NCBI GenBank assembly: GCA_964448235.1
Contig: CAYUWD010000001.1
Location: 1 to 62,358 of the forward strand
Direction: 5' to 3'
DNA from: an uncultured Bacteroidales bacterium
GTDB taxonomy: Bacteria > Bacteroidota > Bacteroidia > Bacteroidales > ML635J-15
DNA: 62,358 bases
Below are positions 1-50,503 of the stretch, piece after piece. A program made the position numbers and the translations under genes. Numbering within the stretch: the first letter of the stretch is position 1; the number at the start of each line of letters is the position of its first letter. Below the pieces are notes generated by a model, which was given only the letters and a program-made list of their open reading frames with translations, was not told where the DNA came from and did not search any database.

Positions 1-15
1 TTCCAGGTTGTGGAG

Positions 16-2931
16 CTAATCTGGGTTGCGGCAACGCCCACGTTGAGCAAGACATTCTAAGTTTCCCCACTCAGTATTGCCTTCAACATATGGTATAGGT
101 GTACCATCCGGATAGTGAGTAACTTTAAGATTTTCTGCCATCCATTCTTGTTCTCCAATTATTACAGTTGGATAAGTATTTCCGTCAATATCTGTTACAC
201 TCCCACCAATATTACTTGATACCCATAAATAATTATCTTTTGATTCAATATCTGTTCCAAATTCATTCTCAACGGTAAGGCTAATGTCATAGGTTCCCAT
301 AATGGTATAAATATGAATTGGATTTCGGTCTGTACTAGTTGATCCATCTCCAAAATCCCAAAACCAAGTTTCAGCGTTGTTTGAAAAATCATAAAACTGG
401 ACTTCTTGATTTATATATGTTAATGTATTGTCAGCTGTAAATTCTGCTATCACAGGAACAACTTCATCATAAACATCAACTTCAATACTAGCTTCGCACT
501 CATTTGCATCTTTTACATAAATGATATGTGTTCCTGTTACAACTACTGTAAAGGTATTGTTAGATGAATAGCTAACTTGATCATCAATAGAGAATTGATA
601 CGGTGCCTCACCACCAGAAACACCAACCTCAATTACATTACCCATCACATTAGTATTGATTATTAAATTTGTATTTTCACAAACATCCGTTGGAGCTACA
701 AAGCTTTCCGATGCATAACAACCTGCATCATCACGAACCATAAATAAATATGTTTCACCATTAACTATACTAATTTGTGGTACAGTTGAACTAAAACTAA
801 TACCATCTGTAGAATATGTATAAGGTGGTGTTCCCATAGAAGGTATTGGCTGAATAATTCCATCTTCTTCCGATACGACAACAGATAATGATGTTTGTGA
901 ACAATCGTTTGATTCTGTATATGCAGAAATTATAACAGGTGAATTATTGATATTATGTCCATCACAATCTAAAACAGAAACATCCAATTGAGATTCCTCA
1001 AGTCCTCCTGGTGTCCATGTAACACTTGCAATTCCTTCAGAATTCGTAAATACATTTATGCTATTTACGGTTCCACCATTTTGAGGCTCAAAGTGTACAA
1101 TAGCTCCAGGCACAATAATTCCGTGGTTTCCAATTACCTTAACAGTAATTTCTTGCTCTAATTCATTACCTTCTGAGTAGATTTGATTGTTACCGGAAAC
1201 AATCTCTATATTATGAGGAAACTGAAGGTTGTAAAATCCTTGTTCCCAAGTTTTACTAACATCAAATAAAGTGTAGCCTAATACTTCTGCTAAAGCCCCT
1301 ACAGTTAATTCACCACCAATATCCATACTTGCCTGCCAATTATCATTATAAAAGCAAAGGTTAAGCTCTTCTGTTATTCTTGCGTCAATATATGGTCCAA
1401 CAATGCCATAAATTTTAAATGTAATGTTTGGTCCTATATCAAAGTGCTGTGTCAAATCTCCTGTGATCTCAAAAGTATTATCTGTTTCAACAAATTCTTG
1501 TTCATCATAGATATAATCCCACTCACCGTCTTCATACTCTACTGCTGCAACATATTGTGATGTTTTGTTATATGAATGTGTTGCTTCCATTTCAGCACCA
1601 ACCTCAATTGAAAGATTACCATCCACTTTAAACTCAGCTAATATCCAGACAGGAACTCCACCAATTAAAAATACAATATTTTTAGGATAAGAAATAAGTG
1701 TGTAATGATGATCCAAGACACTTGTAGATGCTGTAGCTGATAGTACCAATTCATAATTTCGTTCAATAATTCCATTATACATCCCCATTTTAAATGACTT
1801 TAGTCTAAGCCTCTTATAATCAAGATCTGCTCTGAAATTTGGATTAAAAGAATATGAACCGTTTAGTTCTAGCATTATATTACCCAAATCAAGTATTGTC
1901 TGATTGAATTCTAAATCTATCAATGATCCACCGTCTTTCTCAGACATATTATTAATACTTACACCAGGGTGTACATATGTAGGTTCTGAATCAACAATGT
2001 AATAGTAGTTCCCATTTTTAAGTTCCGGATTTGAAATCAACTCTGCACGTGTCGGCATATGATTTAGTCTTTTGTATGATGATTTTTTTGATCCGTTTAA
2101 ACTTGTGTCAAGACTAAATGCCTGTCCTACATCGAATGCTCCGTATTTAGTAATATCTTCTAAACTAGATTGAACTGTTTGCATTGTGTAAACATCTCCC
2201 ACATTAGTAAAAGACTCTACTTTGCGCATAAAACCATTATTGATTAGTCCTAATAAAACTGTAGAATCTGTAATCTCAGGAACAGGATCGCTAAACTCAA
2301 TTACATACTCTCCAGCTTCTAACTGTCCTGCATCACTTGTTAGGATATCTGTTTCATCAACAACTACTAATTCATCTATATAAATATTTTCTCTAAATTG
2401 AATCTCAATAGTATCAGAACTAGTACCACAAACATTGGAAACTTCCCAAACAACCTGATAAATTGTATCTGTTCCATCAAATGCAGTATAAGGATCTGAA
2501 CTGTCCGTAAACAAACCTCCATTTCCGCTATAGACCGACCAACTTCCACTTGATGCACTATTTGTGCTTCCCATCATGACAACACTATTTCCCGGCACAA
2601 TTCTATCTGCACCTGCATTTGCTATTGGTTTTAATTGTACATGGCTTACTTCAGAATATATTGGAGGACATTCCGCGAATCTTACCATAGCTCTAAAATA
2701 TTTTTCTTCATTAGGGAAATACTTATAAATAGTATCGTTTGCTCCATGAATATTAATCCAATTTGTGTTATCTAATGAACTTTGCCATTGTACTGTACCG
2801 TACTGATAATTTGATGTCTTTAAAACTATAGTATCACTATCACCACACACATCCACAGTTTGTGCAAATATGCTTGAATTTGCTAAAAATAAAATGCAAA
2901 TTATATATATTATTGATAATACTCTTTTCAT
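16..2931 (-). CDS. Large secreted multidomain surface protein (Ig/PKD-like, Big_1-like, SprB-like, PKD) with a C-terminal Fib_succ_major (FISUMP) domain that appears truncated
   Basis: Signal peptide; PIANAGAD PKD-like start; GTPPYTYS/GGEAPYQFS SprB-like motifs; WFWDFGDG PKD; DIDGNTYPTVIIGEQEWMAENLKVTHYPDG FISUMP start. Similarity to paralogues stops after WGNLE (about nt 55). Confidence 0.8.
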   Translation of the reverse strand: MKRVLSIIYIICILFLANSSIFAQTVDVCGDSDTIVLKTSNYQYGTVQWQSSLDNTNWINIHGANDTIYKYFPNEEKYFRAMVRFAECPPIYSEVSHVQLKPIANAGADRIVPGNSVVMMGSTNSASSGSWSVYSGNGGLFTDSSDPYTAFDGTDTIYQVVWEVSNVCGTSSDTIEIQFRENIYIDELVVVDETDILTSDAGQLEAGEYVIEFSDPVPEITDSTVLLGLINNGFMRKVESFTNVGDVYTMQTVQSSLEDITKYGAFDVGQAFSLDTSLNGSKKSSYKRLNHMPTRAELISNPELKNGNYYYIVDSEPTYVHPGVSINNMSEKDGGSLIDLEFNQTILDLGNIMLELNGSYSFNPNFRADLDYKRLRLKSFKMGMYNGIIERNYELVLSATASTSVLDHHYTLISYPKNIVFLIGGVPVWILAEFKVDGNLSIEVGAEMEATHSYNKTSQYVAAVEYEDGEWDYIYDEQEFVETDNTFEITGDLTQHFDIGPNITFKIYGIVGPYIDARITEELNLCFYNDNWQASMDIGGELTVGALAEVLGYTLFDVSKTWEQGFYNLQFPHNIEIVSGNNQIYSEGNELEQEITVKVIGNHGIIVPGAIVHFEPQNGGTVNSINVFTNSEGIASVTWTPGGLEESQLDVSVLDCDGHNINNSPVIISAYTESNDCSQTSLSVVVSEEDGIIQPIPSMGTPPYTYSTDGISFSSTVPQISIVNGETYLFMVRDDAGCYASESFVAPTDVCENTNLIINTNVMGNVIEVGVSGGEAPYQFSIDDQVSYSSNNTFTVVVTGTHIIYVKDANECEASIEVDVYDEVVPVIAEFTADNTLTYINQEVQFYDFSNNAETWFWDFGDGSTSTDRNPIHIYTIMGTYDISLTVENEFGTDIESKDNYLWVSSNIGGSVTDIDGNTYPTVIIGEQEWMAENLKVTHYPDGTPIPYVEGNTEWGNLECLAQRGRCRNPD

Positions 2932-2935
2932 AATC

Positions 2936-3331
2936 TTAATTTTTGCTTATTACAATTTTGGTTGATACTCGTCCAACTTCAGTTGATAAACTCACCGAAT
3001 AAACTCCAGGTTGTAGGTCTTTAAAATCGAATGCTTTTACACATTTTTTTGACTCACTAAAGAACTTTTCTTGATACAATAATTGCCCTGAAGCATTTAC
3101 AATTGAAATTTCAAACCTACCAAGCTCTACCTTTGAATTGATTTCCAATTCAAATTGACCGGTATTTGGATTTGGTAATACAGTTACAGATAAGTTTTCA
3201 TTTTGCATGAATTGGTTTTGTTCAATACTTAAATTTGAACATGGATTTGGCAGTTCTAAACTGACTGATGTTTGTGCTGAAAGAAACTTCACAGCAATAA
3301 GTAAAATTAAAATAGATATTGTCTTTTTCAT
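2936..3331 (-). CDS. Small T9SS type A sorting (CTD) domain protein with only a ~25-aa passenger
   Basis: Signal peptide, then VLPNPNTGQF...VNASGQLL...LQPGVYSV...KIVI, the typical CTD signature. Confidence 0.85.
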   Translation of the reverse strand: MKKTISILILLIAVKFLSAQTSVSLELPNPCSNLSIEQNQFMQNENLSVTVLPNPNTGQFELEINSKVELGRFEISIVNASGQLLYQEKFFSESKKCVKAFDFKDLQPGVYSVSLSTEVGRVSTKIVISKN

Positions 3332-3342
3332 AATATAATTTT

Positions 3343-5643
3343 CTAGTTTTTAACACACCTTACAGATGTGCCATAAGACTTGTATGTAGTTGTAGTGCTT
3401 ATGTGGTTATTATACTGATTCATATGTTTTACCCTTGCTTCAGTTGCTGTTGAATTGGTGCTAGTCCACCAACTTGCAATGTCACCAGCACCTTCAAACT
3501 CTCCAGGGTCTGCAGTTCCTGTACCCCAACTTGATCTTCCTCCTGTCGGATAGGCAGCAAAGCCATAATAGTCATATCCATTACCTACCGCTGTGTTCCA
3601 TCCGGAAGTTGATGCTATTGCTTTTTGAACATCATAATATAATCCATTAGCATTAAGGTCATCAAAAATATAATAATTTAAAATATCCCATTCGTCTTCT
3701 GTTGGTAAATGCCATCCATTAGGACAAACTCCTTGTACCTGATTACCAGTAGATGGAACACCATTAGTTGCAGCAGCATAAGTGTATAATGCACCATAAC
3801 CTGTTGCATAAGATGAATTATTATTATAAAAACAATATGCTTTATCTGTATCATTATTCTCAAGATCTCCCCAATCTAAGAAATCAGTAACAAGAGGTAT
3901 TGGAGTCCCATCAGAATAATGTGTTGATCTCAAATTTTCGGACAACCATTCTTGTGTGCCAATTACGACACTTCCATAGTTATTCCCATCATAATCTGTA
4001 ACACCTCCTCCTTGCGAATAGAAGGTAGTTGTTGTGAATTGAACCTGATTACCATAAGCTGTTCCGTTAGCATTTGTTGCATAAGCTCTCACATAATAAG
4101 TTTGTCCAGGTGTTAAGTCTGATAAGGAGGAAATGAATACTCCGTTTCCAGAACCATTACTCGTTACTTCATCAGATAAATCAGGATTTGAACTTGTACC
4201 ATAGCAAACTCCCCGCTGTGTAACACTAGAACCACCGCTAGAGGTAACATTACCTCCAGTTTGAGCCCTAATATGTGCAATATCTGTTATTTCAGTTGTT
4301 ATTACGCTTGGAATACCTGTGTCCCCGGTTGTAAAACAAATTTCATTTCCATAAATTGTTCCGTAATAGTAAGTTGCATAAGCTCTTACATAATAAGTTG
4401 TATTTGTTTCTAAGCTACTTATATAGGAGTTAAAGCTACCAAAATTATCTCCCTCATTACTATAACCAATATTATTTTCAATAGTTGGGTATGACTGATT
4501 ACTCCAGCAAATTCCATACTGATAAGCATAACCACAAACATCACTAACCTCTCCACTGCAATAAGCACTGTTATAATCAATATCTGTTGCATTATTTGTT
4601 ATGACACTTGAACCGAAGGTTGTAAAAGAAATATTTTCTCCATATGCCGTACCGGCTCCATTTGTTGCATATGCCCTAAAATAATAAGTAGTTGATGGTA
4701 ATAAATATCCAACAAGCTTATCGAAATTTCCAGTTCCTGACCCACTAGCTATAATCTCATCATCAATAGTAGGATAAATATGAGTTGCATAGCAAAAGCC
4801 CTTATATGTTTCGTCATATAAGTCTAATGAAGAAACTACATTTCCATGTAATCTTACCGAATAACAACTTAAATCACTAACTGATTCTGTAATTACTTCT
4901 GGTAATAATGTCCCAAATTCTAAATATACTATATCATTATTTTCTGGTGTTAATTCGATTGTGTGACTTAAAAATAAATCTACTCCCAATGTCCCTGTTA
5001 ATGGGCCTGAGAATGCATAAATTTCTACAACATCTCCCGGTTGATATGACCATCCACTTTTTGAGTCAGAAATATTTTTAGTTGATAGCGTATTCTCTTT
5101 CATATTTTCTGAGAATACGTATTTATCACCTAAATCCAAAAGTTTGAAAGAATTACTTGCCTGTTTTGAATCTACTCGAACTATAACCGGACAATTATTA
5201 GGAATTTCTAACTCTATTTGATCAGAACCACTTGAAACGCTATATGATTTCTGATTAAGAATCTGACCAGCAAGATTGATTACTTTTATTGACAAATTAT
5301 CAGATTCAATAAAATTTGTCTGTAGATAAAATCTATTGTTTATTACGTCTATATTTAATAATCCAGAATCAAAACTATTATCTAAAATTCCTACTGACAA
5401 ACCAAATGTCCCGGCTGTTAGATTCACATCAATACTACTTAAGTCTGTTCTTAGTCCTGCAGTAGTAAAAGACAAATCTGAACCATTAGAAATATTTTCT
5501 ATTGTAATATGATCAAGACTTATTGGATCTGGAGTTACAGGAGTTGTTCCACTATTTACTGATTGTAATGTTATAATAACATCCTGTGAAAATAGGATTG
5601 TTGATAGCATTGTTGCTAAAATAATTAAATAAGTTTTTTTCAT
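3343..5643 (-). CDS. Secreted protein: internal CTD-like domain + 3 FN3-like repeats + Fib_succ_major tip (766 aa)
   Basis: ATG 5643 (MKKTYLIIL) preferred over 5670, which overlaps the upstream gene. YYxRAYA repeats x3; DYDGNNYGSVVIGTQEWLSENL...GWHLPT...SVRCVKN. Confidence 0.85.
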   Translation of the reverse strand: MKKTYLIILATMLSTILFSQDVIITLQSVNSGTTPVTPDPISLDHITIENISNGSDLSFTTAGLRTDLSSIDVNLTAGTFGLSVGILDNSFDSGLLNIDVINNRFYLQTNFIESDNLSIKVINLAGQILNQKSYSVSSGSDQIELEIPNNCPVIVRVDSKQASNSFKLLDLGDKYVFSENMKENTLSTKNISDSKSGWSYQPGDVVEIYAFSGPLTGTLGVDLFLSHTIELTPENNDIVYLEFGTLLPEVITESVSDLSCYSVRLHGNVVSSLDLYDETYKGFCYATHIYPTIDDEIIASGSGTGNFDKLVGYLLPSTTYYFRAYATNGAGTAYGENISFTTFGSSVITNNATDIDYNSAYCSGEVSDVCGYAYQYGICWSNQSYPTIENNIGYSNEGDNFGSFNSYISSLETNTTYYVRAYATYYYGTIYGNEICFTTGDTGIPSVITTEITDIAHIRAQTGGNVTSSGGSSVTQRGVCYGTSSNPDLSDEVTSNGSGNGVFISSLSDLTPGQTYYVRAYATNANGTAYGNQVQFTTTTFYSQGGGVTDYDGNNYGSVVIGTQEWLSENLRSTHYSDGTPIPLVTDFLDWGDLENNDTDKAYCFYNNNSSYATGYGALYTYAAATNGVPSTGNQVQGVCPNGWHLPTEDEWDILNYYIFDDLNANGLYYDVQKAIASTSGWNTAVGNGYDYYGFAAYPTGGRSSWGTGTADPGEFEGAGDIASWWTSTNSTATEARVKHMNQYNNHISTTTTYKSYGTSVRCVKN

Positions 5644-5654
5644 TTTGTTTTTGT

Positions 5655-7082
5655 TTAATTTTTTATACATCTTACAGAACCTGCATCGTTTTTTCGACCA
5701 AGTCCTGCATCAATTTTTAATTCTAGCCCAGTATTAACATTTCCTGTATATGCCTCATCAGAAATAATCTCATCACTAGCCCACCATTTAGCTATATTAA
5801 ACCCCCAAACAAACATACCTTGATATAAAGTACCACCAAAACGAATTCCACTATGTACTCCATTAAAACCAAAAGTGTTAATTCCATTGTTATCATCAAA
5901 CCAGCCCGAAATTGATTTTAAAGCATGTCCTTCATTACCAGAGTATCCGTTTGAACCAACGTAATCTTTAAGTTGCTGCCATTCTGCAGAGCTAGGCAAA
6001 TGCCAGCCATCAGGACAAACACCTTGTACTCCACTTGGGTTAGAGGAACTACTTACAGCATTATCTCCCATTGCTGCTGCCCATGAATAAAGTGCCCCAT
6101 AAGGACTACTTGTATTATTATTGTAGTAACAAAATGCATCATCAGTATTATTTGCAAGCAAATTACCCCATGTTATACCATCTGTTATGTAAGGAATAGG
6201 AGTGCCATCAGGATAATGTGTTGCTTTAAGATTTTCTTTTAACCAACATTGTGTTCCGATTTGAACTGTTGCATACACATTGCCGTTAATATCCATAACA
6301 TAGCCACATCCCGGAAATTCAGATGTTGTGAAGCTTTTTTGATTGCCATATGCTGTTCCAATATTATTCGTTGCATAAGCTCTGACATAATAAGTTGTAT
6401 TTTCTAAAAGTTGAATAATATTGCTTACAAATACACCAGAGCCACTACCATCAATAGTTTTAATATCAGCTATTGTAGGATTACTAGATGTACTCCAGCA
6501 TAAACCTCTTTCTGTAACAGAACTACCACCATCATCCGTGATGTTTCCACCGCAAGTTGCAGACACCGGTGCAACATTGCTTGGATTATCGGTTGTTAGA
6601 GTTGGGATATCAAGTGTTGTAAACATTTGTTGATTCCCATAAGAAACCCCTACACTGTTTTTTGCATAAGCTCTAACATAATAGATAGTTCCTAATGAAA
6701 GTCCTGTTAAGTTACAAGTAAAAGAACCCAAACCAATACCTTCAATTGTAAAATAGTCAGCAATTGTTGGATTCGAAGATGTACTCCAGCAAACACCACG
6801 CTCAAATATTTCTGCTCCTCCATTTTCTGTAATATTTCCACCACAAGTTGCTGTTATGCCTGTGATATCACTTACGCTATTTGTAGTTAGTGCTGCAAGA
6901 CTGAGCAATTTTCCGTTTTTATTTAACACTCCACTTGATGAAACCTCCCCGTTTTGATTTACAAAACTTGAACTTGTGTTAGTTTGCTCTCCTGTGTTTG
7001 TGATGGATTGGGAGAAAACAATACTACAAAAACATAACAAAATAAACAGAGGACTAATTTTAAATATATTGTTTCTAAGCAT
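5655..7082 (-). CDS. Secreted protein: 37-aa N-terminal motif + 2 FN3-like repeats + Fib_succ_major tip
   Basis: Signal peptide; two RGxCWSTSSNPT...YYVRAYA repeats; QCWLKENL...CPDGWHLPS...SVRCIKN. Confidence 0.88.
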   Translation of the reverse strand: MLRNNIFKISPLFILLCFCSIVFSQSITNTGEQTNTSSSFVNQNGEVSSSGVLNKNGKLLSLAALTTNSVSDITGITATCGGNITENGGAEIFERGVCWSTSSNPTIADYFTIEGIGLGSFTCNLTGLSLGTIYYVRAYAKNSVGVSYGNQQMFTTLDIPTLTTDNPSNVAPVSATCGGNITDDGGSSVTERGLCWSTSSNPTIADIKTIDGSGSGVFVSNIIQLLENTTYYVRAYATNNIGTAYGNQKSFTTSEFPGCGYVMDINGNVYATVQIGTQCWLKENLKATHYPDGTPIPYITDGITWGNLLANNTDDAFCYYNNNTSSPYGALYSWAAAMGDNAVSSSSNPSGVQGVCPDGWHLPSSAEWQQLKDYVGSNGYSGNEGHALKSISGWFDDNNGINTFGFNGVHSGIRFGGTLYQGMFVWGFNIAKWWASDEIISDEAYTGNVNTGLELKIDAGLGRKNDAGSVRCIKN

Positions 7083-7097
7083 GATTTCTTGTTTAAA

Positions 7098-9140
7098 TTA
7101 ATCCTTGATGCAACGTACAGCACGCCCGTCTGAACGTCTGTTACTGATCTCGTTAGCAGAGCTACTACCTATTTCCAAGAAATAAATATTGGCACCATTT
7201 ACAGTACTCGAATAATAGTTACCCCAAGACGAGCTATAGATTGAACCATTAAGGTAGTCGCGTACACCTCCCACTGTCAATTTAAGAGGCGAGGCAAAAG
7301 CACCCTCTGCATCATTGCTAACCCAACTTTGGCGTTCTGAAGTCCACTCTGTTTTAGTAGGTAATCGGTAACCACTTGGACAGGGGTTGTTGATACCACT
7401 TTCACCCTGCCAAAGATTGTCGTTTTGTGTGCTGCGCCAATCATCTGACTGGATAATAAAGTTAGAATGTCCAGGTGTATCGCTATTGCTTAATATTGTT
7501 GTTGTACCAGATGTTCTTAATTGGTGCCCATCAGAAGCACGACCCCACTGGTACAGGTCACCGTAAGAGTCTGCATCGGTACTACTGGTGGCTACTTGTG
7601 AAGCACCGAGATTGCGGTCAAGCCAACATTTATTAGAACTAGCTACTATTCCATATCCTGCTGGAGGTGTAATGCCTGCACAAGGATTACTTGTCGTAAA
7701 CGTAATTTGATTACCATAATTTGTGCCAACTGAATTAGTTGCATATGCCCTTGCATAATATGTTGCCCCAGGACTTAAACTGGTTATATTACTAGTAAAA
7801 CTACCTGTCCCCATACCATCCGTTGTATGAGAATCATTCGTTGTGGGATTCTGTGAAGTACTCCAGCATACACCTCGCGAAGTAACATTAGTTCCTCCAT
7901 CTGATGATACATTTCCCCCACTTATAGCAGAATTTGAGGTTATTGATGATGCTGAATATGTAGATATTGTTGGGGGTATAGTTCCTGATGTAAAAATAAC
8001 CTGATTACCATAACTTGTGCCTTCAGAGTTCGTCACATAAGCTCTTACATAATATGTTGTTCCGGGAATTAATCCCGTAATACTGCTTGTAAAACTACCT
8101 GTGCCGCTGCCATCTGTTGTATGAGAATCAGCTATTGTAGGATTTTGTGAGGTACTCCAGCAAACACCTTGAGCAGTTACTGGTATCCCTCCGTCAGAGG
8201 TTACATTACCGCCACAAGTTGCAGTTGTTCCAGCAATATTTGTTACCTCATTAGTACTAATCTCCGGCAACCCAGCTGTTAATGTCATAAAACTAACCTC
8301 ATCACCATAAGAAACTCCTTTCGCGTTTTTTGCATACGCTTTTACAAAGTACTCGGTATTGTAGTCAAATCCGGTTATATTGGCACTATACTCACCTTCC
8401 TGGTCATATCCGATATGGATTTGGTCTGCAATTGTTGGATTTGATACAGTATTCCAACAAAACCCACTTTGGGTAATGTTTAGACCACCATTGTCAATTA
8501 TATTTCCGTTAAATATTGCGCTATTTGTTGTTATATTATCAACAGATATTGTTTGAACATCTGGCAATTGAAATATTTTACCCGAAGAGCTGATTAATGG
8601 AGTGTTAGTAACTTTGCCATTTTCACCAACAAAATTATCACTAGTTGAACTTTCTTGCCCATATTTTGTAACAGCAGAAATAGGTTCATTACTAACTATT
8701 AGTTTATATCCCTTTAAAGTATCTGGGACCTCATAAGCCATTCCCAAGAAAGAAACTCTATAATCTAAAACAATTTCCAACTCATTTAATCCAATACTTT
8801 CGATTGCTGGCAAACCCTCAATTGTAAAACAACCATTTGTGTTTGCTAGCCAAAACCCAGAATTGGTATTAGCAGTAAATGATAGATTTGACGGTAGATT
8901 TAAAATGCTAAATACTCTAACAGAATCAACAGCAAGAGTATATCCCTGCAACTCAACTTCTGTAGGAATAACAGCATTAATCACTGTACTATAAGCCTCT
9001 CCAACAACAGCGGGAGGAATATTTATTATTGTGTCAGGATAAAACCCGGGATCTGTATAATTTAAATCCGGATTACATTGCGCATTTAAAACACTTTGTG
9101 CAAAAAATATTGCTATTATTATAAATAATAATTTTTTCAT
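7098..9140 (-). CDS. Secreted protein: Ig-like N-domain + 37-aa motif + 3 FN3-like repeats + Fib_succ_major-like tip
   Basis: Signal peptide; three stalk repeats; WLDRNLGA...GDLYQWGR...NPCPSGYRLPT...AVRCIKD. Confidence 0.88.
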   Translation of the reverse strand: MKKLLFIIIAIFFAQSVLNAQCNPDLNYTDPGFYPDTIINIPPAVVGEAYSTVINAVIPTEVELQGYTLAVDSVRVFSILNLPSNLSFTANTNSGFWLANTNGCFTIEGLPAIESIGLNELEIVLDYRVSFLGMAYEVPDTLKGYKLIVSNEPISAVTKYGQESSTSDNFVGENGKVTNTPLISSSGKIFQLPDVQTISVDNITTNSAIFNGNIIDNGGLNITQSGFCWNTVSNPTIADQIHIGYDQEGEYSANITGFDYNTEYFVKAYAKNAKGVSYGDEVSFMTLTAGLPEISTNEVTNIAGTTATCGGNVTSDGGIPVTAQGVCWSTSQNPTIADSHTTDGSGTGSFTSSITGLIPGTTYYVRAYVTNSEGTSYGNQVIFTSGTIPPTISTYSASSITSNSAISGGNVSSDGGTNVTSRGVCWSTSQNPTTNDSHTTDGMGTGSFTSNITSLSPGATYYARAYATNSVGTNYGNQITFTTSNPCAGITPPAGYGIVASSNKCWLDRNLGASQVATSSTDADSYGDLYQWGRASDGHQLRTSGTTTILSNSDTPGHSNFIIQSDDWRSTQNDNLWQGESGINNPCPSGYRLPTKTEWTSERQSWVSNDAEGAFASPLKLTVGGVRDYLNGSIYSSSWGNYYSSTVNGANIYFLEIGSSSANEISNRRSDGRAVRCIKD

Positions 9141-9151
9141 GATAAAGTATT

Positions 9152-10174
9152 TTAATAATAGTATTCTAATTGGATTCTATCACCAGCATCTAAATCATGA
9201 TTTCCATTGTTAACAGGGTTATACTCTAAACTTGTCCCTGTTGCCGTAAATGCCGAGTTGCTAATTCTTACACCATTAATATACAATTTAATAATACAAT
9301 TAGTCGCTGGAGTATTTGAAAGAGTAAATGTTGTTTGCCCTTCTGTTGCAGCAAATTCATCTACAACTTCAACTATTATTGTTTGCGCGTCTGTTATTCC
9401 GTATCCACTTAGTGTAGTAGGTGTAGATGTAATTTCTGACCAATCTCCTGTTAAATCGTCACTAGCATCGGTATCCATATTAGCGGGAACATCTGTTAGG
9501 TCGTTATAGCTGCCACTAAAATCATCTGTCGCATCAATATCCAAATTTACCGGAACATCTGTAAGACTATTATAACTGCCGTCAAAGTCATCAGAATTAT
9601 CAGTATCCCAACCAGTAAAATCTGGAGTATTTTGCACATCAGCCCAATCCACACTTCCACCAGCAACCTGCCCAGGCTCAAACTTACCTGTTATTTCATT
9701 ATATATAAGAGCATCCCCATCTTGAACATCAGTAAGATCTATATAAGCAACATCTCCTGCGGCAAATGCATAAGGCACAGAAACAAACTCTATTGTTCCA
9801 AGAGTTAAATCAAAGGAAAATGTATTAGTTGGATCATATTCTATTTTTAGAAACTTACTTGCATCTGCCCACGCAATGTTTTCAAATGTTCCAACAGTGA
9901 CATAATTTGCATCTCTGCCAATTTGGAACGAAAACGAACCATAAGCATTAGTTTGTAATGCACGTAATTCTTGATAAACAACAGTGCCCTCGGGAGTTTC
10001 TTCGAGAACCGACAAACGAATTTGAATATTCGTATTTACCATTGGATTACTTTCGGCATCACGTGCAATTGCCTGAAAATTAATTGCTTGTGGAACCTGA
10101 GCAAACAGGCTTGTTAGCCCAAAACTAAATATTGCTGTAAGCAATAAAACTGATTTTTGTAAAACTTTTTTCAT
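9152..10174 (-). CDS. Secreted protein with phage tail-fibre-like repeats
   Basis: Signal peptide; VPQAINFQAIARD N-domain common in Bacteroidota; 22-aa repeats with SGSYNDLTDVP; PTTLSGYGITDA motif. Confidence 0.8.
   Translation of the reverse strand: MKKVLQKSVLLLTAIFSFGLTSLFAQVPQAINFQAIARDAESNPMVNTNIQIRLSVLEETPEGTVVYQELRALQTNAYGSFSFQIGRDANYVTVGTFENIAWADASKFLKIEYDPTNTFSFDLTLGTIEFVSVPYAFAAGDVAYIDLTDVQDGDALIYNEITGKFEPGQVAGGSVDWADVQNTPDFTGWDTDNSDDFDGSYNSLTDVPVNLDIDATDDFSGSYNDLTDVPANMDTDASDDLTGDWSEITSTPTTLSGYGITDAQTIIVEVVDEFAATEGQTTFTLSNTPATNCIIKLYINGVRISNSAFTATGTSLEYNPVNNGNHDLDAGDRIQLEYYY
9410..9607 (-). repeat. Three tandem 66-bp (22-aa) coding repeats DxDxxDDFxGSYNxLTDVPxN
   Basis: DTDNSDDFDGSYNSLTDVPVNL / DIDATDDFSGSYNDLTDVPANM / DTDASDDLTGDWSEITSTPTTL. 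Confidence 0.85.
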
Positions 10175-10193
10175 GTTATTTTGATTATTATGA

Positions 10194-10697
10194 TTACAAC
10201 TTAATAAATTTAATTTCTCCGATATTTTCGCCTACTGCGGAATAGCCTTTAATAAAGTAATTGCCGCTTGTAAGTTTGGATACATCTAATTGATAGATTT
10301 TTTCGGCACTTGATTTTGTTTGCTGCAAAACAATTTTGCCGGCAGCATCGAATACCTGAAATGCAACGGTTTCGCTTTTTAGTCCGTTGATTTGCAGATT
10401 TAGCAAATCCTCAACCGGGTTCGGATAAACCAATGTTCGCATTTGCTGCTCAACAAGCAACGGTTTTGCAGTTGGCATATCAGGAATACCACCAGTATCT
10501 TCATTATCGCTTTGCCCACCGGCATCCAAACTTATGCCATCGGCATTAATAGAAAATACAAATAACTCGCCAATGGTAGCACTAATTCCTTCATTAGAAA
10601 TACCGCCGGAGGATAGGGTTATACGATCGAGGTTTTGGCCTTGCAGAAATGTAATTGCTGCAAACAGAGTGATGAGAATTAGAAGTGTTTTTTTCAT
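10194..10697 (-). CDS. Small T9SS CTD protein with a ~50-aa passenger
   Basis: Signal peptide; VYPNPVEDLLNL...VFDAAGKIV...LTSGNYFIK...KFIKL. Confidence 0.88.
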   Translation of the reverse strand: MKKTLLILITLFAAITFLQGQNLDRITLSSGGISNEGISATIGELFVFSINADGISLDAGGQSDNEDTGGIPDMPTAKPLLVEQQMRTLVYPNPVEDLLNLQINGLKSETVAFQVFDAAGKIVLQQTKSSAEKIYQLDVSKLTSGNYFIKGYSAVGENIGEIKFIKL

Positions 10698-10752
10698 AGT
10701 TTATTTATTTTACTTAATAATCAATATTTTAATAAACATTAGTTATATATGC

Positions 10753-13038
10753 TTAAAATGAACGGATTGCTCTAACTGCATAACCAGCGTTCGTTTTCAA
10801 ATAAGACTGGGAAACCCCTGAGCTACAAGACACCCAATACGCATATGTTGAAGTGTGTTCGGAAGACGACCAATAGTATCCTGTACTTAAATTAGGAATA
10901 TATGCACTGCTTAAATACATTTGATAAAGTTCATCTTTAGAAGGTAAATACCAATCCGAATAGCCACTGAGTGACAAATCACTGCATATCCTGGCGGCTA
11001 TACCTGATTCGCTACACAAATTCACTATCGCTGTTGTGTTGGCTTGACCTGTACCAAATGCTGTTGAAGTTGTTCCAATTAGTGTTCCTGAACAACCCCA
11101 CGTAACACCACTCAACGCTTGATCCGATGCAGCAGCAATTAACCCATGTTGTCCTGTGCCATCCAAATAAAAAATCACTCCCCCACCATAACTTTGCCCT
11201 AGCGTATAAGTAGTTGTAAAGCTAATCTGGTTTCCATAGGATGTTCCAGCAGAATTGGTAGCATAAGCTCTTACATAATAAGTTGTTAGCGGGTCTAAAC
11301 CTGTGATATAACTTGTAAACGAATTGGTACCAGTACCATCAGTTGTAAGTTGATTAGCAGTTGTCGGATTTTGACTTGTACTCCAACAAACTCCTTTTGC
11401 TGTTATTGGTGCACCGCCGTCGCTTGAAATTGAGCCTCCACTAGATGCAGAATTGCCATTAATGCTTGAAGCTGTAACAGTTGTAATTGAAGGAGTGCTA
11501 GGGTTTGTTGTTGTGAAACTTTGTTGTGTTCCATAACTTGTGCCTGCTGCATTTGTAGCATAAGCTCTTACAAAATAAGTTGTGCCAGCAGTTAGTCCAT
11601 CTAGATTGCTGGAGAAGCTACCAACAGAACCAGTACCTAATAGTGTTTTATTATCGCTTGTCGTTGGGTTTGCATTTAATCCCCAACAATGACCATGTTG
11701 AGTTACATTAGTAGACCCGAGGCTTGAAATGCTGCCACCTGCAGTTGCTGAGACAAGCGTAATGTTTGTAATATTGCCTGTAGTTACACTGGGTGCTGTA
11801 GGAGAAGAACTTGTAGTAAATGAAACCTGTGAACTATATCCGGTTCCTGCAGCATTTGTAGCGTATGCTCTTATATAATATGTTGTATTTGGAGAAAGAC
11901 TAGTCAAAGAACTATTAAAAGACCCAGTTGTACTCATAGTGCCCAAAGTCGTTTTATAATTACTCGTTGTAGGATTAGATGAAGTAGCCCAGCAATGTCC
12001 ATGTTGAGTAGCGCTTCCTGATCCCAGATTAGTAATTGCACCCTGAACATCGGCAGTAGTTTCTGTAACATTATTAGCAGCATCAGTGGTTAATGTTGGC
12101 ACAGATGCTGTGGAGGTAGTGGTAAAAATCTGATCAGCACTATACCCAGTACCGCTGCTGTTGGTTGCATAAGCCCTTACATAGTATGTGGTATTTGGTG
12201 ACAACCCCGACAAATCTGAAGAAAAGGAACCCGTGGCAGAAGTAGGTCCTAAAGTCGTAACGTTATTCCCAGTCGTTGGGTTTGGTGTTGTTGACCAACA
12301 ATGTCCTCTTTGTATGACATTGGAGCTACCAATACTTGAAATATTTCCTGAAATCTGTGCGGTTTCTGATGATATATTTGTTGCGGCTGCACAAGTAACA
12401 ACAGGTGAATTTGGGTTTGCGATTTCCATACTTATTGAAATTGTAGCGTTCCCACCATTTGATGTAATTGAAATACTTTGGCTATAGTAACCTTGATTTA
12501 AACCAGTCCTGTCAATTGTAATATTCAAATAACTTACTTCAGTGGTTGTGCTTCCACTCAATGGATTGGGAGTTAACCAATTGATATTCTCAGTTACTGT
12601 CCATTCAAGTGATGCAGAACCTGTGTTTCTTATTTCAATAGGCAAAGTTGTAAGGTTAGATCCAAAATCAAGACTGCTAACATCTACATTAAGTATTGGA
12701 ACTATTGGAGTAATTGAAATATCTCCTTTTCTTGGCGCAGTACCAAATACTGCAACTTCTTTTGTATTCGTTATATAACCCGACTTCGCAGCTTGCACAG
12801 TGTAATCACCTTCAGCAAGTCCATCAAAACTATATCTTCCATCACTACCAGTTGTATAAGATGCATTACCAGGGCTTATAGAAACTGTTACACCAGATAC
12901 AGGCTGTGATGTTTGAGAATCATTTATAATACCTTCTACTCCACCATTTTCTTCATCGTCTTTGCAAGAAATATATATTATCCCTGTACAAATAAGTAAA
13001 ACGGTTACAAAGCTAAAAAACCACTTGCTCCTTTTCAT
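10753..13038 (-). CDS. Surface lipoprotein: carboxypeptidase-regulatory-like + BACON-like + 4 FN3-like repeats + DUF1566 (Lcl C-terminal)-like tip
   Basis: Lipobox ISC followed by KDDEE (Bacteroidota export-signal-like); four stalk repeats; GYSDWYLPSKDEL...YWSSSE...VRAIRSF. Confidence 0.85.
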   Translation of the reverse strand: MKRSKWFFSFVTVLLICTGIIYISCKDDEENGGVEGIINDSQTSQPVSGVTVSISPGNASYTTGSDGRYSFDGLAEGDYTVQAAKSGYITNTKEVAVFGTAPRKGDISITPIVPILNVDVSSLDFGSNLTTLPIEIRNTGSASLEWTVTENINWLTPNPLSGSTTTEVSYLNITIDRTGLNQGYYSQSISITSNGGNATISISMEIANPNSPVVTCAAATNISSETAQISGNISSIGSSNVIQRGHCWSTTPNPTTGNNVTTLGPTSATGSFSSDLSGLSPNTTYYVRAYATNSSGTGYSADQIFTTTSTASVPTLTTDAANNVTETTADVQGAITNLGSGSATQHGHCWATSSNPTTSNYKTTLGTMSTTGSFNSSLTSLSPNTTYYIRAYATNAAGTGYSSQVSFTTSSSPTAPSVTTGNITNITLVSATAGGSISSLGSTNVTQHGHCWGLNANPTTSDNKTLLGTGSVGSFSSNLDGLTAGTTYFVRAYATNAAGTSYGTQQSFTTTNPSTPSITTVTASSINGNSASSGGSISSDGGAPITAKGVCWSTSQNPTTANQLTTDGTGTNSFTSYITGLDPLTTYYVRAYATNSAGTSYGNQISFTTTYTLGQSYGGGVIFYLDGTGQHGLIAAASDQALSGVTWGCSGTLIGTTSTAFGTGQANTTAIVNLCSESGIAARICSDLSLSGYSDWYLPSKDELYQMYLSSAYIPNLSTGYYWSSSEHTSTYAYWVSCSSGVSQSYLKTNAGYAVRAIRSF

Positions 13039-13042
13039 AATC

Positions 13043-14593
13043 TTACTGTTGTAAATTATAAATTTGGGTTATTTCTGATTGAGAGAGAGCACGATTATAT
13101 GTTCTGATATTATCCATCTTTCCATTGTAGGCAGGCATATTATTAAAAGTTTGATCAGCAGGATCATCACCTATATAAGTATTATTATATGTTTGCCATT
13201 TAAAAGTCGTGCTACTTTTTGTTTCATTTAAAACTGCATCGAAATAGTATTTTGCAGAACTTCCATCAAACGTAATTGTAAGCATATGCCATTGATTATC
13301 AAGATTGTTACTTATAGGATTAGTAGATTCCCAATAATTACTACTACTAACATATTGATAAAGTTTAGATGAAGAGTTAATATAAATTTTGCAATAACTA
13401 ACACTTGTAGCATATAGTACTTGGTTTGAGTTTACCGTTTTTAACCAAATATTAAGAGACCAGTTGCTTGCTGGTGGAATAATTGTGTTGGAAACATTGA
13501 TATAAGATGATCCATTAAAAGATGCACAAAATCCAATGTCATTAGGAATATCATTTGAAAATTCTACTCCCACGTTAACACCATTAAAATTACCTGTCCA
13601 GTCATTAATATTTTGGTTATCAAAAGTATAATATGCAACAAGTCCATTTGTGACCACAACAGAACTAGAAGAACTGGTTGTTAATGTTATTTGATTACTA
13701 TACCCTGTTCCAATTGAATTTGTAGCATAGGCTCTTACATAATAAACCTGATCAGGTTCTAAAGCTGTTAAGTTACTTACAAATTGTCCGGCTGATGTTG
13801 TACCACCTAATGTTGTCTTGTTATCCGATGTTGTCGGATTAGAACTTATACTCCAACAATGCCCTCGTTCAATAACTGTAGAATTGCCAATAGAGGTTAT
13901 ACTTCCTACAATATCAGCAGAGGTCTGAGTAATATTAGTTGGCTGATTACATGTTACAGAAGGAACATTATCAGCAGCAACTTCTACATTAACTGTTATT
14001 GTTTCATTTCCACCATTAGAAGTAATTGAAAACACCTGACTGTATTGCCCTGATCCCATTTGATTTCTGTCAATTGTAATCTCAATTGCATCTGTTTCGG
14101 TTGTAGTTGACCCAGAAATTGGATTTATGCTTAACCATGCAACATTCTCTGATATTTCCCAATCCAAAGAATTTGAACCAACATTGGTTATTTCTATTGG
14201 TAATACAGTATATGTTGTTCCAAAATCTAAACTTATCATATTTACTTCCAAAATTGGAACTATTGGGTCTAATGCAACATCTCCTTTTCTTACTTGACCT
14301 CCTAAAACAGTTACTGCTTTGCTATTATCACCATATCCTGTCTTACTCACATTTATAGTATAATCTCCTTCTAGCAAATCTGCAAATTGATATTTTCCAT
14401 CACTACCAGTAGTTGCAGAAGAATTTGCAGGTGTTATTGTTACATTTGCCCCCTCAATTGTTTGTGATGTTTGTGAGTCTGTTATAATTCCTTCAATTGT
14501 CCCTTCATTCTCTGATTGATTATCACATGCATTTAAGAAACTTAAAATTGATATGATCAATATTGTCAACCAATAAAATATTTTATTTTTCAT
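13043..14593 (-). CDS. Lipoprotein: carboxypeptidase-regulatory-like + BACON-like + 1 FN3-like repeat + LamG/ConA-like tip
   Basis: Lipobox NAC; GLVAYYTFD...WHMLTIT...GKMDNIRTYNRALSQSEI LamG signature. Confidence 0.85.
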   Translation of the reverse strand: MKNKIFYWLTILIISILSFLNACDNQSENEGTIEGIITDSQTSQTIEGANVTITPANSSATTGSDGKYQFADLLEGDYTINVSKTGYGDNSKAVTVLGGQVRKGDVALDPIVPILEVNMISLDFGTTYTVLPIEITNVGSNSLDWEISENVAWLSINPISGSTTTETDAIEITIDRNQMGSGQYSQVFSITSNGGNETITVNVEVAADNVPSVTCNQPTNITQTSADIVGSITSIGNSTVIERGHCWSISSNPTTSDNKTTLGGTTSAGQFVSNLTALEPDQVYYVRAYATNSIGTGYSNQITLTTSSSSSVVVTNGLVAYYTFDNQNINDWTGNFNGVNVGVEFSNDIPNDIGFCASFNGSSYINVSNTIIPPASNWSLNIWLKTVNSNQVLYATSVSYCKIYINSSSKLYQYVSSSNYWESTNPISNNLDNQWHMLTITFDGSSAKYYFDAVLNETKSSTTFKWQTYNNTYIGDDPADQTFNNMPAYNGKMDNIRTYNRALSQSEITQIYNLQQ

Positions 14594-14600
14594 TATTATA

Positions 14601-15218
14601 TTATTTAACTATCGAAACTGACACTGTTGAATTACCTCCGTTTGATATTATTGAAATTATTTGTGAATGAGAACCAGACTCCAAAGATGATCGGTCAACA
14701 GTTACCATTACATTACTTGTTTGCGAAGTTGTTATTCCACTCAATGGGTTAATACTTATCCACTCAGCATTTTCAGAAATGCTCCACTCCAAACTACCTT
14801 CTCCCGAATTAGTAATTGCAATTGGCAGTGTTGTCAAATTATTACCAAAGTCCAGGCTTGAAACAGAAAGATTAATAATTGGAATAATTGGTTGCAAAAT
14901 AACATCCCCCGAATTTGTTTGTCCGGCAATCACAGTAACACTTTTTGTATTTGTTGTATAACCATCCTTCTGGACTTCTATAGTGTAGTCTTTTGGATCA
15001 AGATTTTTAAAATCATACTTTCCATCTACTCCTGTTGTTGCAGAAGAATTTAAAGGGCTTAATGTTACATTTGCCCCTTGAATTGGTTCATTAGTCTCAG
15101 CATCTACAACAATTCCATCAATATCTCCTACCACTGGAATATCTATTGGGTCACATCCAAAACACCAAAATAACATCGTAGATAAAATGGCTAAAATTAC
15201 TTTCTTCTTTGTCATCAT
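14601..15218 (-). CDS. Lipoprotein with only the carboxypeptidase-regulatory-like + BACON-like base
   Basis: Lipobox FGC; GANVTLSP...TTGVDGKYDF; SLDFG...LPI.ITN.G...LEW, shared with the two downstream genes. Confidence 0.85.
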   Translation of the reverse strand: MMTKKKVILAILSTMLFWCFGCDPIDIPVVGDIDGIVVDAETNEPIQGANVTLSPLNSSATTGVDGKYDFKNLDPKDYTIEVQKDGYTTNTKSVTVIAGQTNSGDVILQPIIPIINLSVSSLDFGNNLTTLPIAITNSGEGSLEWSISENAEWISINPLSGITTSQTSNVMVTVDRSSLESGSHSQIISIISNGGNSTVSVSIVK

Positions 15219-15220
15219 TA

Positions 15221-16117
15221 TTAAAATTTATAAGTTAATCCAAAGTTTAATATTTTGTTATCATCATAATATGCGTAGAAGTTTGTGTCAGAATTACGTA
15301 TTAAGCCTGCATATTTTTTTGCTCCTCTTGAGGTAGATGCATCAATAATGTTATATATGTATATAGCAGCAAAACCTGCTATACAAAAATAACTACCATT
15401 TCTCCAATTATCAGCCCTGTCAATGTATTGTGTTCTAACATAAATGTTGCTATTCTGTTGAGCTAATCTAAGATTCGATTTATACTGACTATAAGTAACT
15501 ACTGTTCCTATTGCAAATAATCCAGCACTACTAAGAAAACCAATACCTTTATTTCTTTCCTTTTTATAAAATTGTCCCCATCCTGGAACAACTGCTGATC
15601 TCCATACACCACTCATTCCATATCCTTGTTTTATTTCCTTTGGAGATGCTCCGTTCTTTGGGATTTTCATAAGTACCCAATATTGATACTCAATTTTATC
15701 ATTTGTTAAAACTTTTTGCCAATAATCTTCCTCTTTCTGTAGCCCTCTTATCACAATTTCTTCTCCACTACTATTTATGACTTGAATATAATCTTCATTA
15801 TAAGAATACTTCTCTTCACCACTTAAATCTATATCAACATTTTCTTCCTTTGTATATGTTCTTTCAACCTGAATTGTTGTATTATCATTAAATGATATTT
15901 GCGAGAGAACATTTCCAATTGCAGATTCTTGTGCAGATTCTAATGAAGTAGTACTCGAACCAATGCCAGTATAATACTTGTACGAATCTCCAGTTGGGGA
16001 TTCTTCAATCCAGTCAGGTTTACTATTGCTTGATTGATCTATAATATCTTGTGAAGAAACTATTTCGTAACAAAATAATGTAAAAACAAGAAAAATTAAT
16101 TTTAGTTCTATTTTCAT
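15221..16117 (-). CDS. LPP20-like domain protein with a DUF5683-like membrane C-terminus
   Basis: KPDWI...YYTGIG...AQESA LPP20-like; SAVVPGWGQFY plus hydrophobic segments. Confidence 0.7.
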   Translation of the reverse strand: MKIELKLIFLVFTLFCYEIVSSQDIIDQSSNSKPDWIEESPTGDSYKYYTGIGSSTTSLESAQESAIGNVLSQISFNDNTTIQVERTYTKEENVDIDLSGEEKYSYNEDYIQVINSSGEEIVIRGLQKEEDYWQKVLTNDKIEYQYWVLMKIPKNGASPKEIKQGYGMSGVWRSAVVPGWGQFYKKERNKGIGFLSSAGLFAIGTVVTYSQYKSNLRLAQQNSNIYVRTQYIDRADNWRNGSYFCIAGFAAIYIYNIIDASTSRGAKKYAGLIRNSDTNFYAYYDDNKILNFGLTYKF

Positions 16118-17007: not shown

Positions 17008-17742
17008 CTACATCTCGGCTAGATTCTTTGCCAAACGTGTAGAAACAGGTATTAAGAATTCATTTAAATTGCATTTTAATACGCAAATTCTGTTTTTTCG
17101 ATTATATTCTGTAATATATTTCTTATTTACAAGATAAGATTTATGTACACGAATAAAGTTACGCTCATCCAGATCATTTGTGAGATCTTTAAGTGTTTTA
17201 CTTACAACTCTTTTTTCTTTATTTGTTAGCATTAGCTCAGTGTAATTACCGTCTCCATTAGCAAAAGCAATATCGTCGCGATTTAGGAATTCAAACCCAT
17301 TCGCAGTGTTGATCTTTAATTTTGTATCAGTTTGTAATAAGTCAAGCAATTGAGAATAGTCATGCGGTTTTGGAGAGTCCTTTTTAGCAAGATATTTATT
17401 TATTGTCTCCTGCAATTCTTGCTTATCAACCGGCTTTAATAGATAGTCAAATGCGGAATATTTTATGGCTTTTATTGCAAATTCATCGTAAGCTGTTAGA
17501 AAAACAATATCAAAAGAATTAACTCCAAGATTTTTGAGCTTGTCTAATACATCAAAACCGGTTTGTCCCGGCATTTTAATATCAAGAAAAACCAGATCGG
17601 GACTATTTTTTACCAAATAGTCTATGGCTTCGTCAGGATTGGTTGTTGCAAATTCAATTTTTACATCGTCGAACTTTTGCAACATTGTACTAATATTAGT
17701 AATTGCATGTTTCTCGTCGTCTATTATTACTGTTTTTATCAT
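17008..17742 (-). CDS. LytTR-family response regulator
   Basis: Receiver VIIDDE...VFLDIKMP...FLTAYD...LLKP; LytTR FIRVHKSYLVN. Confidence 0.95.
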   Translation of the reverse strand: MIKTVIIDDEKHAITNISTMLQKFDDVKIEFATTNPDEAIDYLVKNSPDLVFLDIKMPGQTGFDVLDKLKNLGVNSFDIVFLTAYDEFAIKAIKYSAFDYLLKPVDKQELQETINKYLAKKDSPKPHDYSQLLDLLQTDTKLKINTANGFEFLNRDDIAFANGDGNYTELMLTNKEKRVVSKTLKDLTNDLDERNFIRVHKSYLVNKKYITEYNRKNRICVLKCNLNEFLIPVSTRLAKNLAEM

Positions 17743-17791
17743 AGTCGTTTATTGTTATTGTTTGATAACCTTCGTTCTTAAAATCTGTTTT

Positions 17792-17908
17792 TTGTCATAA
17801 TCTTTGCTTACAGTTGTAGCAAAGATATACGCCAAAAACGACATCGCTTGGTTTTGTAATCCCCGGACTATGTCCGGGGTTACAAACATTAAACCCCTAC
17901 GGGGTTTT
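17792..17908. repeat. Three-hairpin REP-like dispersed element, copy 1
   Basis: TCTTTGC..GCAAAGA, CCCCGGAC-TAT-GTCCGGGG and AAACCCC-TAC-GGGGTTT hairpins; homologous to 38864-38991. Confidence 0.8.
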
Positions 17909-17942
17909 AAAGGTATTTTAACAAATACTTTTTCCATATAAG

Positions 17943-20843: not shown

Positions 20844-20874
20844 TAACTTTTTTGAACAATGCAAAATTTCGATA

Positions 20875-26492: not shown

Positions 26493-26568
26493 TTTTTCAT
26501 GTTTTCTAAAAACAAAAATAAGCAAAATAGATAAAACCACTTTGCTTATTTCAATTTATCTTTAAGGT

Positions 26569-28014: not shown

Positions 28015-28020
28015 TTTGTT

Positions 28021-50490: not shown

Positions 50491-50503
50491 ATAGTTCAAA
50501 TCT

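Follow-up and report, generated by a model that had tools for sequence, protein, structure and literature searches.

We have found two gene pairs in a Bacteroidales contig in which a type IX secretion system (T9SS) tag and the protein that it would serve appear to be encoded by separate, adjacent genes. The contig (CAYUWD010000001.1, positions 1 to 62,358, a 62,358-nucleotide stretch here called the window) comes from an uncultured Bacteroidales bacterium. In each pair, both partners are predicted to enter the periplasm by Sec signal peptides, and the type-A C-terminal domain (CTD) of the T9SS is found on the small protein only. We propose that the small proteins act in trans, as T9SS carrier and anchor for the product of the gene next to each, and we put the probability of this reading, which was reached from sequence comparison, at about one half. 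The wider proposal of a split cargo is a little less probable. According to it, T9SS would export CTD-less, probably trimeric, tail-fibre-like adhesins in trans through the SprA/Sov translocon, by means of a docking peptide of ~50 amino acids (aa), fused to a CTD, that binds the adhesin's N-terminal module and becomes its lipopolysaccharide (LPS) anchor. Such cargo would be widespread in Bacteroidota and would have evolved at least two times, as two unrelated pairs.

Small proteins with a CTD and a short passenger

Pair 2 consists of a 167-aa protein (10194..10697, minus strand) and a 340-aa partner (9152..10174, minus strand). Pair 1 consists of a 131-aa protein (2936..3331, minus strand) and a 971-aa partner (16..2931, minus strand). 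The small gene lies upstream of its partner in both pairs, across gaps of 19 bp (10175-10193) and 4 bp (2932-2935), respectively. A preliminary description of the sequence had given these positions and spacings, had read the small proteins as a signal peptide, a short passenger and a CTD, and had seen no CTD on the large signal-peptide proteins; all of this was borne out. Both small proteins score above the curated cut-offs for type-A CTDs (27 bits for PF18962, Por_Secre_tail, and 23 bits for TIGR04183). The 167-aa protein reaches 54.6 bits with PF18962 at aa 90-153 and 41.3 bits with TIGR04183 at aa 90-166, and the 131-aa protein 46.2 bits with PF18962 at aa 52-128 and 35.6 bits with TIGR04183. 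Each begins, on reading of the sequence, with a Sec-type signal peptide made of MKKT, a hydrophobic core and an (A/G)-Q end. In the 167-aa protein the signal peptide (aa 1-20; 10638-10697) is followed by a passenger of ~69 aa (aa 21-89; 10431-10637) and the CTD (aa 90-167; 10197-10430). In the 131-aa protein the signal peptide (aa 1-19) is followed by a passenger of ~32 aa (aa 20-51; 3179-3274) and the CTD (aa 52-131). The passengers had been put at ~50 and ~25 aa, respectively; they are short, as claimed, and somewhat longer than that.

The pair-2 passenger is conserved across bacterial orders, in upstream genes of unrelated contigs. Its family motif is QNLDRI(T/S)LSSGG...IGE.F.F...ISL(D/E).G..S...NTGG, with a Bacteroidales form of QNLDRISLSSGG...(V/I)GE.F.F...ISLE.GS.SS..NTGG and a form in other orders of Q.L.P.V(I/V).S.GG......L.(Y/W)T(I/V)GE......LTQGFQQP. 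A phmmer search with the passenger only against 1.84 billion representative sequences returned 13 matches (representative clusters), ten of which are proteins of 160-173 aa with the motif at aa ~20-89 and one a 62-aa fragment. The two remaining, long matches (P0139, P0141) are repetitive proteins and were discarded as spurious. A word-based protein search with the passenger profile found 5 proteins only and was too insensitive by comparison with a DNA-pattern scan and phmmer. In the AlphaFold2 (AF2) model of the 167-aa protein, built from a 16-sequence alignment, the CTD is a beta-sandwich with a predicted local distance difference test score (pLDDT) of ~90, the signal peptide forms a helix at 2-17, and the passenger is unstructured (pLDDT 36-46). 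The passenger is conserved and, from this model, probably non-autonomous in folding.

Longer variants of the pair-2 small protein occur at two loci (L079, 4895-5854, 319 aa; L050, 4869-5894, 341 aa), with two tandem passenger motifs, a fn3-like region and a CTD; in both cases the small gene stands on the downstream side of the fibre gene. L079 comes from Paraflavitalea sp. CAU 1676, which has been cultured and in which a carrier locus lies on NZ_JARHUJ010000005.1 at about 383-392 kb. Some fibre genes follow a gene for a larger CTD protein (L058, L063); these proteins do not carry the passenger motif, look like unrelated ordinary cargo and were rejected as pair members.

The pair-2 partner and its mosaic family

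The 340-aa partner has a signal peptide (aa 1-25), an N-terminal module of ~145 aa (aa ~26-170; 9665-10099; VPQAINFQAIARD...VSVPYAFAAG...), here called the N-module, a repeat stalk (~171-265) and a C-terminal beta domain (~266-340). No Pfam family matches it, and no CTD of any type was found in it with Pfam or NCBIfam. Its match to NF053851 (Bdello_MAT_N) at aa 16-93 has an E-value of 6.7e-6 and a score of 26 bits, below the cut-off of 60, so that it is not a member of that family, the sole named one with any similarity to the N-module. There are 308 detectable homologues, and the part common to them is the first ~170 residues only. Behind this one N-module, the C-terminal parts include FISUMP, Lcl_C/DUF1566, PKD, phage tail collar, the intramolecular chaperone Peptidase_S74, collagen repeats and PTL_trimer (PF09603, PF07603, PF07484, PF13884, PF01391, PF26696 and others). 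The family thus combines an invariant N-terminal beta-sandwich with interchangeable distal tips. A CTD (PF18962) was found on none of 120 homologues among the matches listed, and none of the 62 complete open reading frames (ORFs) from loci in genomes of the Genome Taxonomy Database (GTDB) has a CTD of its own. In a scan with one genome per GTDB species, the N-module was encoded at no fewer than 570 loci (at least), in Bacteroidales, Chitinophagales, Flavobacteriales, Saprospirales and other orders. Carriers of the fibre module in Chitinophaga are so far matches in metagenome-assembled genomes (MAGs) only.

An AF2 model of the 340-aa protein from 90 sequences shows a beta-sandwich at aa 30-130 (pLDDT 94-97), a hairpin (aa 155-168), a repeat stalk with little definition and, at the C-terminus, a beta domain of ~75 aa. 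Foldseek found no match to this model in the PDB at E <= 1e-3, the best being the N-terminal part of tailspike 4 of phage CBA120; the BFVD matches were weak and local, and were to tail fibres and tailspikes of phages. The repeats of the stalk (..GSYN.LTD.P..) show weak similarity to PHROGs of phage tails and tail fibres and to one solved tail fibre in the PDB. By these comparisons, the 340-aa partner is predicted to be a secreted, phage-tail-fibre-like protein. The fibres are probably trimeric, as implied only by the collagen, S74, PTL_trimer and tail-fibre-like parts of relatives.

Co-occurrence of the pair-2 genes

Hidden Markov models (HMMs) were built for the N-module, the passenger and the CTD and were applied to loci from GTDB species genomes with 4-kb flanks, in which 81 N-module genes had enough upstream DNA to be counted. 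A gene for a passenger and CTD lies directly upstream of the N-module gene in 40/81 and directly downstream in 4/81. In a further 4/81 it lies upstream of another N-module gene, one small gene then standing with two to three fibre genes, and in 33/81 there is none within the flanks. Within the clade to which the window belongs (identity of 59% or more), the small gene is upstream of the fibre gene at 13/13 informative loci. Intergenic gaps between small gene and fibre gene are mostly 40 bp or less.

The reverse test used the passenger motif alone (4 sequences) to scan metagenome contigs, where loci with at least 400 bp downstream were taken as informative. An N-module gene directly follows the small gene at 32/32 of these, and 5 further loci were too short. 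Among the genome loci, 46/46 adaptor-like ORFs adjoin a fibre gene. The preliminary description had predicted that a CTD-only gene and its downstream family would co-occur, which both pairs strongly confirm (13/13 and 32/32 for pair 2, and 3/3 for pair 1, see below).

Pair 2 was found on three metagenome contigs with entirely different neighbours (a TonB receptor, a rhamnosidase and an ATP synthase) and also at L008, L010 and L132. Since both pairs recur on unrelated contigs, their arrangement is not due to chance. Over all 47 pairs, distances between passengers track distances between N-modules better than distances between CTDs do (partial r 0.72 vs 0.23). In both pairs the genes are tightly linked, co-oriented and inherited together.

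At two sets of loci (L008/L025, 2435-6722; L048, 1034-8322), two to three N-module fibre genes, which differ in their tips, come after a single small CTD gene. One small gene for two to three fibres, together with the tandem passenger motifs described above, is consistent with a docking element.

Pair 1 and its cysteines

The 971-aa protein is, from domain matches and homologue alignment, a large, multidomain, adhesin-like protein with N-terminal immunoglobulin (Ig)-like domains (C29...C88), a large unassigned beta-rich region, Big_1, SprB-like repeats, PKD and the start of a FISUMP domain. It has no CTD match in Pfam or NCBIfam, nor do its close relatives (P0127-P0131), and the N-module HMM does not match it. 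This family pair is the rarer of the two, and few relatives were detected. In all three that have readable upstream DNA, a small Por_Secre_tail gene (126-146 aa) lies 5-12 bp upstream; these are P0127 (61% identity), P0128 (59%, on two contigs) and P0131 (31%). The pair-1 passenger reads QT.V.L.LPNPCS, with Q20, V23, L25, P30 and C31 invariant. This passenger goes undetected by the HMM for the pair-2 passenger, and the N-module is absent from the 971-aa protein; the same arrangement has therefore arisen with different parts. A distant relative with PF19081 has the Ig-like N-terminal domain fused to a CTD of its own. The locus of the most distant pair-1 relative also has a phage-type integrase gene (L094, 7079-8725), ~1.5 kb downstream of the pair, a hint that mobile DNA may carry this module.

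The two cysteines to which the preliminary description drew attention are present, in NPCS of the 131-aa passenger and in DVCG at aa 29 of the 971-aa protein. Cysteines invariant in the 971-aa family are C29, C88, C168, C526 and C751. The N-terminal ~75 residues resemble an Ig-like domain bracketed by C29 and C88, and the equally invariant C88 is the likely intradomain mate of C29. An intermolecular disulfide between Cys31 of the 131-aa protein and its partner is possible but is not indicated by the sequences. One study describes its SprF/PorG-GldK links as almost the sole known permanent intermolecular disulfides between periplasmic proteins (PMC12635249).

The truncated end of the 971-aa gene

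The preliminary description had taken the C-terminus of both partners to be kept free as a binding tip. For the pair-2 family, with its invariant N-module, swapped tips and lack of a CTD, this agrees with what was found. For the 971-aa protein it does not, as its end is truncated inside a FISUMP domain at the window edge. The ORF covers profile positions 1-29 of 187 of Fib_succ_major (PF09603) at 24 bits, below the cut-off of 33.9, and does not hold a complete FISUMP domain (PF09603/TIGR02145). The FISUMP start is followed by 13 unrelated residues, encoded by a GC-rich stretch (1..55, no strand assigned), and by a stop codon at 16-18, 15 nt from the window edge. No record of the window's own 971-aa protein was found. 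In the alignment, homologues extend ~150 aa beyond it through the FISUMP region, to 1026-1044 aa, and three of them (P0127, P0128, P0131) have a full FISUMP domain with a PF09603 match; the C-terminus of the ORF in the window is therefore truncated and not native. The stretch at 1-55 stands out from surroundings of ~33% GC and is unique within the window, and no tRNA was found in it. From sequence reading and homologue comparison, it may mark a junction with foreign DNA, possibly the end of an inserted element, or a join made during assembly.

Gene neighbourhood

All genes within 16-13038 are on the minus strand, in the order of transcription 761 aa, 167 aa, 340 aa, three FISUMP proteins (680, 475 and 775 aa), 131 aa and 971 aa. 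The 761-aa protein, first in the cluster, is lipoprotein-like, with CarboxypepD_reg, fn3-like repeats and Lcl_C. Between pair 2 and pair 1 lie three genes in the same orientation (3343..9140, minus strand); by domain matches, each of their products has a signal peptide, fn3-like repeats and a FISUMP domain. The products have neither a CTD nor the N-module, and no lipobox was seen on reading. An overlap of 16 bp (5655-5670) joins the 475- and 775-aa genes. These three genes are context only.

Directly upstream of the cluster (13043-16117, minus strand) are genes for proteins of 516, 205 and 298 aa, two of which are lipoprotein-like. The 516-aa protein has CarboxypepD_reg, BACON_2 and Laminin_G_3, the 205-aa protein CarboxypepD_reg and BACON_2, and the 298-aa protein is a DUF5683 protein. 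In the 761- and 516-aa proteins a Cys is followed by acidic residues, which resembles, on reading, the export signal of Bacteroidota surface lipoproteins. A response regulator of the LytTR type (244 aa) and a histidine kinase with Reg_prop/Y_Y_Y (973 aa), encoded a short way upstream of the adhesin genes (17008-20864, minus strand), are possible candidates for regulation of this cluster. A scan for sigma-70 promoters and terminators did no better than on shuffled sequences, the sigma-70 model being ill-suited to Bacteroidota.

Four ordinary T9SS cargo genes with CTDs of their own are found in the window (24876-29487; 49327-50511), three of them in tandem. They encode a C1 peptidase with a lectin-like part, an FG-GAP protein, an unassigned 488-aa protein and an Exo_endo_phos nuclease. 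The low-GC, Bacteroidales-like organism therefore also uses T9SS in the conventional manner. No core T9SS gene turned up among the part of the window's ORFs that was scanned.

Discussion

According to reviews and primary papers, a T9SS cargo protein has a CTD of its own and probably reaches its folded state in the periplasm, ahead of recruitment (PMC10202324, PMC8545088). In the pairs described here, the short passenger of the small protein would bind the conserved N-terminal module of the partner in the periplasm, and the CTD of the small protein would take the complex through the SprA/Sov translocon. PorU would then remove the CTD and link the new C-terminus of the passenger to anionic LPS. 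The fibre would be fixed to the surface through its N-terminus, its tip (FISUMP, Lcl_C, tail collar or other) facing out. Pair 1 would work alike, although neither its passenger nor its N-terminal Ig-like domain is related to the parts of pair 2. Placing the signal on a separate, N-terminally bound partner would leave the C-terminus of the fibre free. This would explain why the fibre family never carries a CTD: a C-terminal tag would sit on the ligand-binding tip of the trimer, and in S74 members the auto-cleaved S74 chaperone would take a fused CTD away. A separate secretion signal would also allow fibre tips to be exchanged freely without touching the signal.

Several points weigh against a carrier and anchor function. 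The contact between passenger and N-module, the export of the partner and the dependence of that export on the small protein are all inferred. In literature searches, which do not cover all journals, no report was found of co-export of a CTD-less protein by T9SS, of a CTD acting in trans or of hitchhiking through this system. In more distant clades, a small gene adjoins only about half of the fibre genes, and about 40% of partner genes have none beside them; the 33 N-module genes without one are mostly from Chitinophagales and other distant clades. A complete chromosome of a Bacteroidales MAG (OY820914.1) has three N-module genes (L035, L038, L068) with no passenger-type small gene within 4 kb. 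The dependence would therefore be either in trans or not universal. Within two clades, the advantage of the passenger over the CTD in tracking the N-module vanishes or is small; as the distance test does not discriminate within clades, the co-divergence shows co-inheritance only. Low pLDDT of the passenger comes from an alignment of 16 sequences, and pair 1 is documented in three independent relatives only. The adaptor or anchor interpretation put forward in the preliminary description is thus partly supported.

The genomic linkage would be the same if the small protein were only a dock, exported alone by T9SS and fixed to LPS, to which a fibre that had arrived by another way (vesicles, lysis or an unknown exporter) bound from outside. 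One small gene serving several fibre genes would fit a dock, as would the bivalent forms, and fibre genes without an adjacent small gene could mean that a dock is shared. The tight operonic coupling, however, suggests assembly before export, and we know of no general route across the Bacteroidota outer membrane for a signal-peptidase-I protein that has neither a CTD nor a lipobox. We regard a dock alone as unlikely. Less likely again is an assembly factor, that is, a chaperone like those of tail fibres or a periplasmic holdase for folding or trimerisation of the N-module, with the CTD merely disposing of it afterwards. The partner is tail-fibre-like, phage fibres often need a small protein encoded beside them, and the passenger is predicted to be unstructured alone. 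Yet the fibre chaperones known to us are encoded downstream and work at the C-terminal tip. Here the small gene is upstream, and it is the N-terminal part of the fibre that is invariant; such a factor would also leave the exit of the fibre from the periplasm unexplained.

Small CTD proteins are common in Bacteroidota, and the two found here could be independent surface or signalling proteins, merely co-transcribed with their neighbours and without direct action on them. A precedent would be PorA, a small protein that has a CTD and acts in regulation (PMC7712824). We consider this as improbable as an assembly factor, because the two unrelated passenger families are each faithful to one partner family, adjacency is 32/32 and 46/46, the passenger is almost confined to ~165-aa proteins beside fibre genes, and no PorA or FimH-like match was found. 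Gene fission or an annotation artefact, by which the CTD gene would be the broken-off end of a neighbouring cargo gene, could draw on the damaged 3' end of the 971-aa gene in the window. We rejected it as highly improbable on gene order, separate signal peptides and conservation: the small genes have start codons and signal peptides of their own and lie 5' of the partner, not 3', the 775-aa protein encoded upstream ends with a complete FISUMP domain, and the arrangement is kept at more than 80 loci across several orders.

The small proteins resemble ordinary type-A cargo, which is shuttled by PorV, processed by the sortase PorU and attached to anionic LPS (A-LPS), in having a type-A CTD and a Sec signal peptide. 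They differ from it in that the CTD protein is almost without a passenger and the large functional protein is separate and has no CTD. Type-B cargo with a PorP/SprF-like partner, such as SprB-SprF, also has a dedicated accessory gene beside a large adhesin gene, and the adjacent accessory is needed for export or anchorage of the adhesin (PMC9143113, PMC12635249). In type-B systems, however, the CTD sits on the adhesin and an outer-membrane beta-barrel serves as accessory, whereas the accessory here is a soluble type-A CTD protein of ~130-170 aa. The partners have no type-B CTD match, and no PorP-like gene is adjacent, the neighbours being FISUMP/Lcl_C proteins. PorA of Porphyromonas gingivalis (PMC7712824, PMC12152298) is likewise small and built of a signal peptide, an N-terminal part of modest size and a CTD, but that N-terminal part is a folded FimH-like domain, and PorA signals to PorXY and is not paired with a CTD-less neighbour. 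In the small proteins there is no match outside the CTD, and the passenger is modelled as unstructured.

Outside T9SS, the nearest likeness is with the MAT fibres of Bdellovibrio, whose invariant N-domain is thought to bind an unidentified element of the cell surface (PMC10769870). Like the pair-2 partners, these have an invariant N-domain, mosaic C-terminal tips of S74 and non-S74 types and a phage-tail-fibre character. They differ in the match (26 vs 60 bits) and the phylum, and no small partner has been described for MATs. Bdellovibrio is, to our knowledge, without a T9SS. In hitchhiker export by twin-arginine translocation (Tat), a subunit without a signal is carried by a signal-bearing partner, for example in hydrogenases and dimethyl sulfoxide (DMSO) reductase. 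There too a folded partner crosses a membrane on the signal of another protein; the membrane, machine and signal are different, and the likeness is one of analogy only. The pairs are a variation within T9SS cargo and a member of none of the systems compared.

Conclusions

T9SS cargo is currently defined and predicted by the CTD on the cargo itself. The linkage of both pairs across many Bacteroidota suggests that the signal for secretion or anchoring may instead be supplied by a separate, small partner protein. If this is true, the translocon must accept non-covalent complexes, and the pairs would provide a concrete analogue for the binding partner of the Bdellovibrio MAT N-domain. They would also offer a handle for surface display, a ~50-aa peptide with a CTD against a module of ~145 aa, in which the displayed C-terminus is free. 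A large and diverse class of Bacteroidota surface adhesins, at 570 loci or more in genomes that represent species, with rumen, gut, digester and soil lineages among them, would then be invisible to CTD-based prediction.

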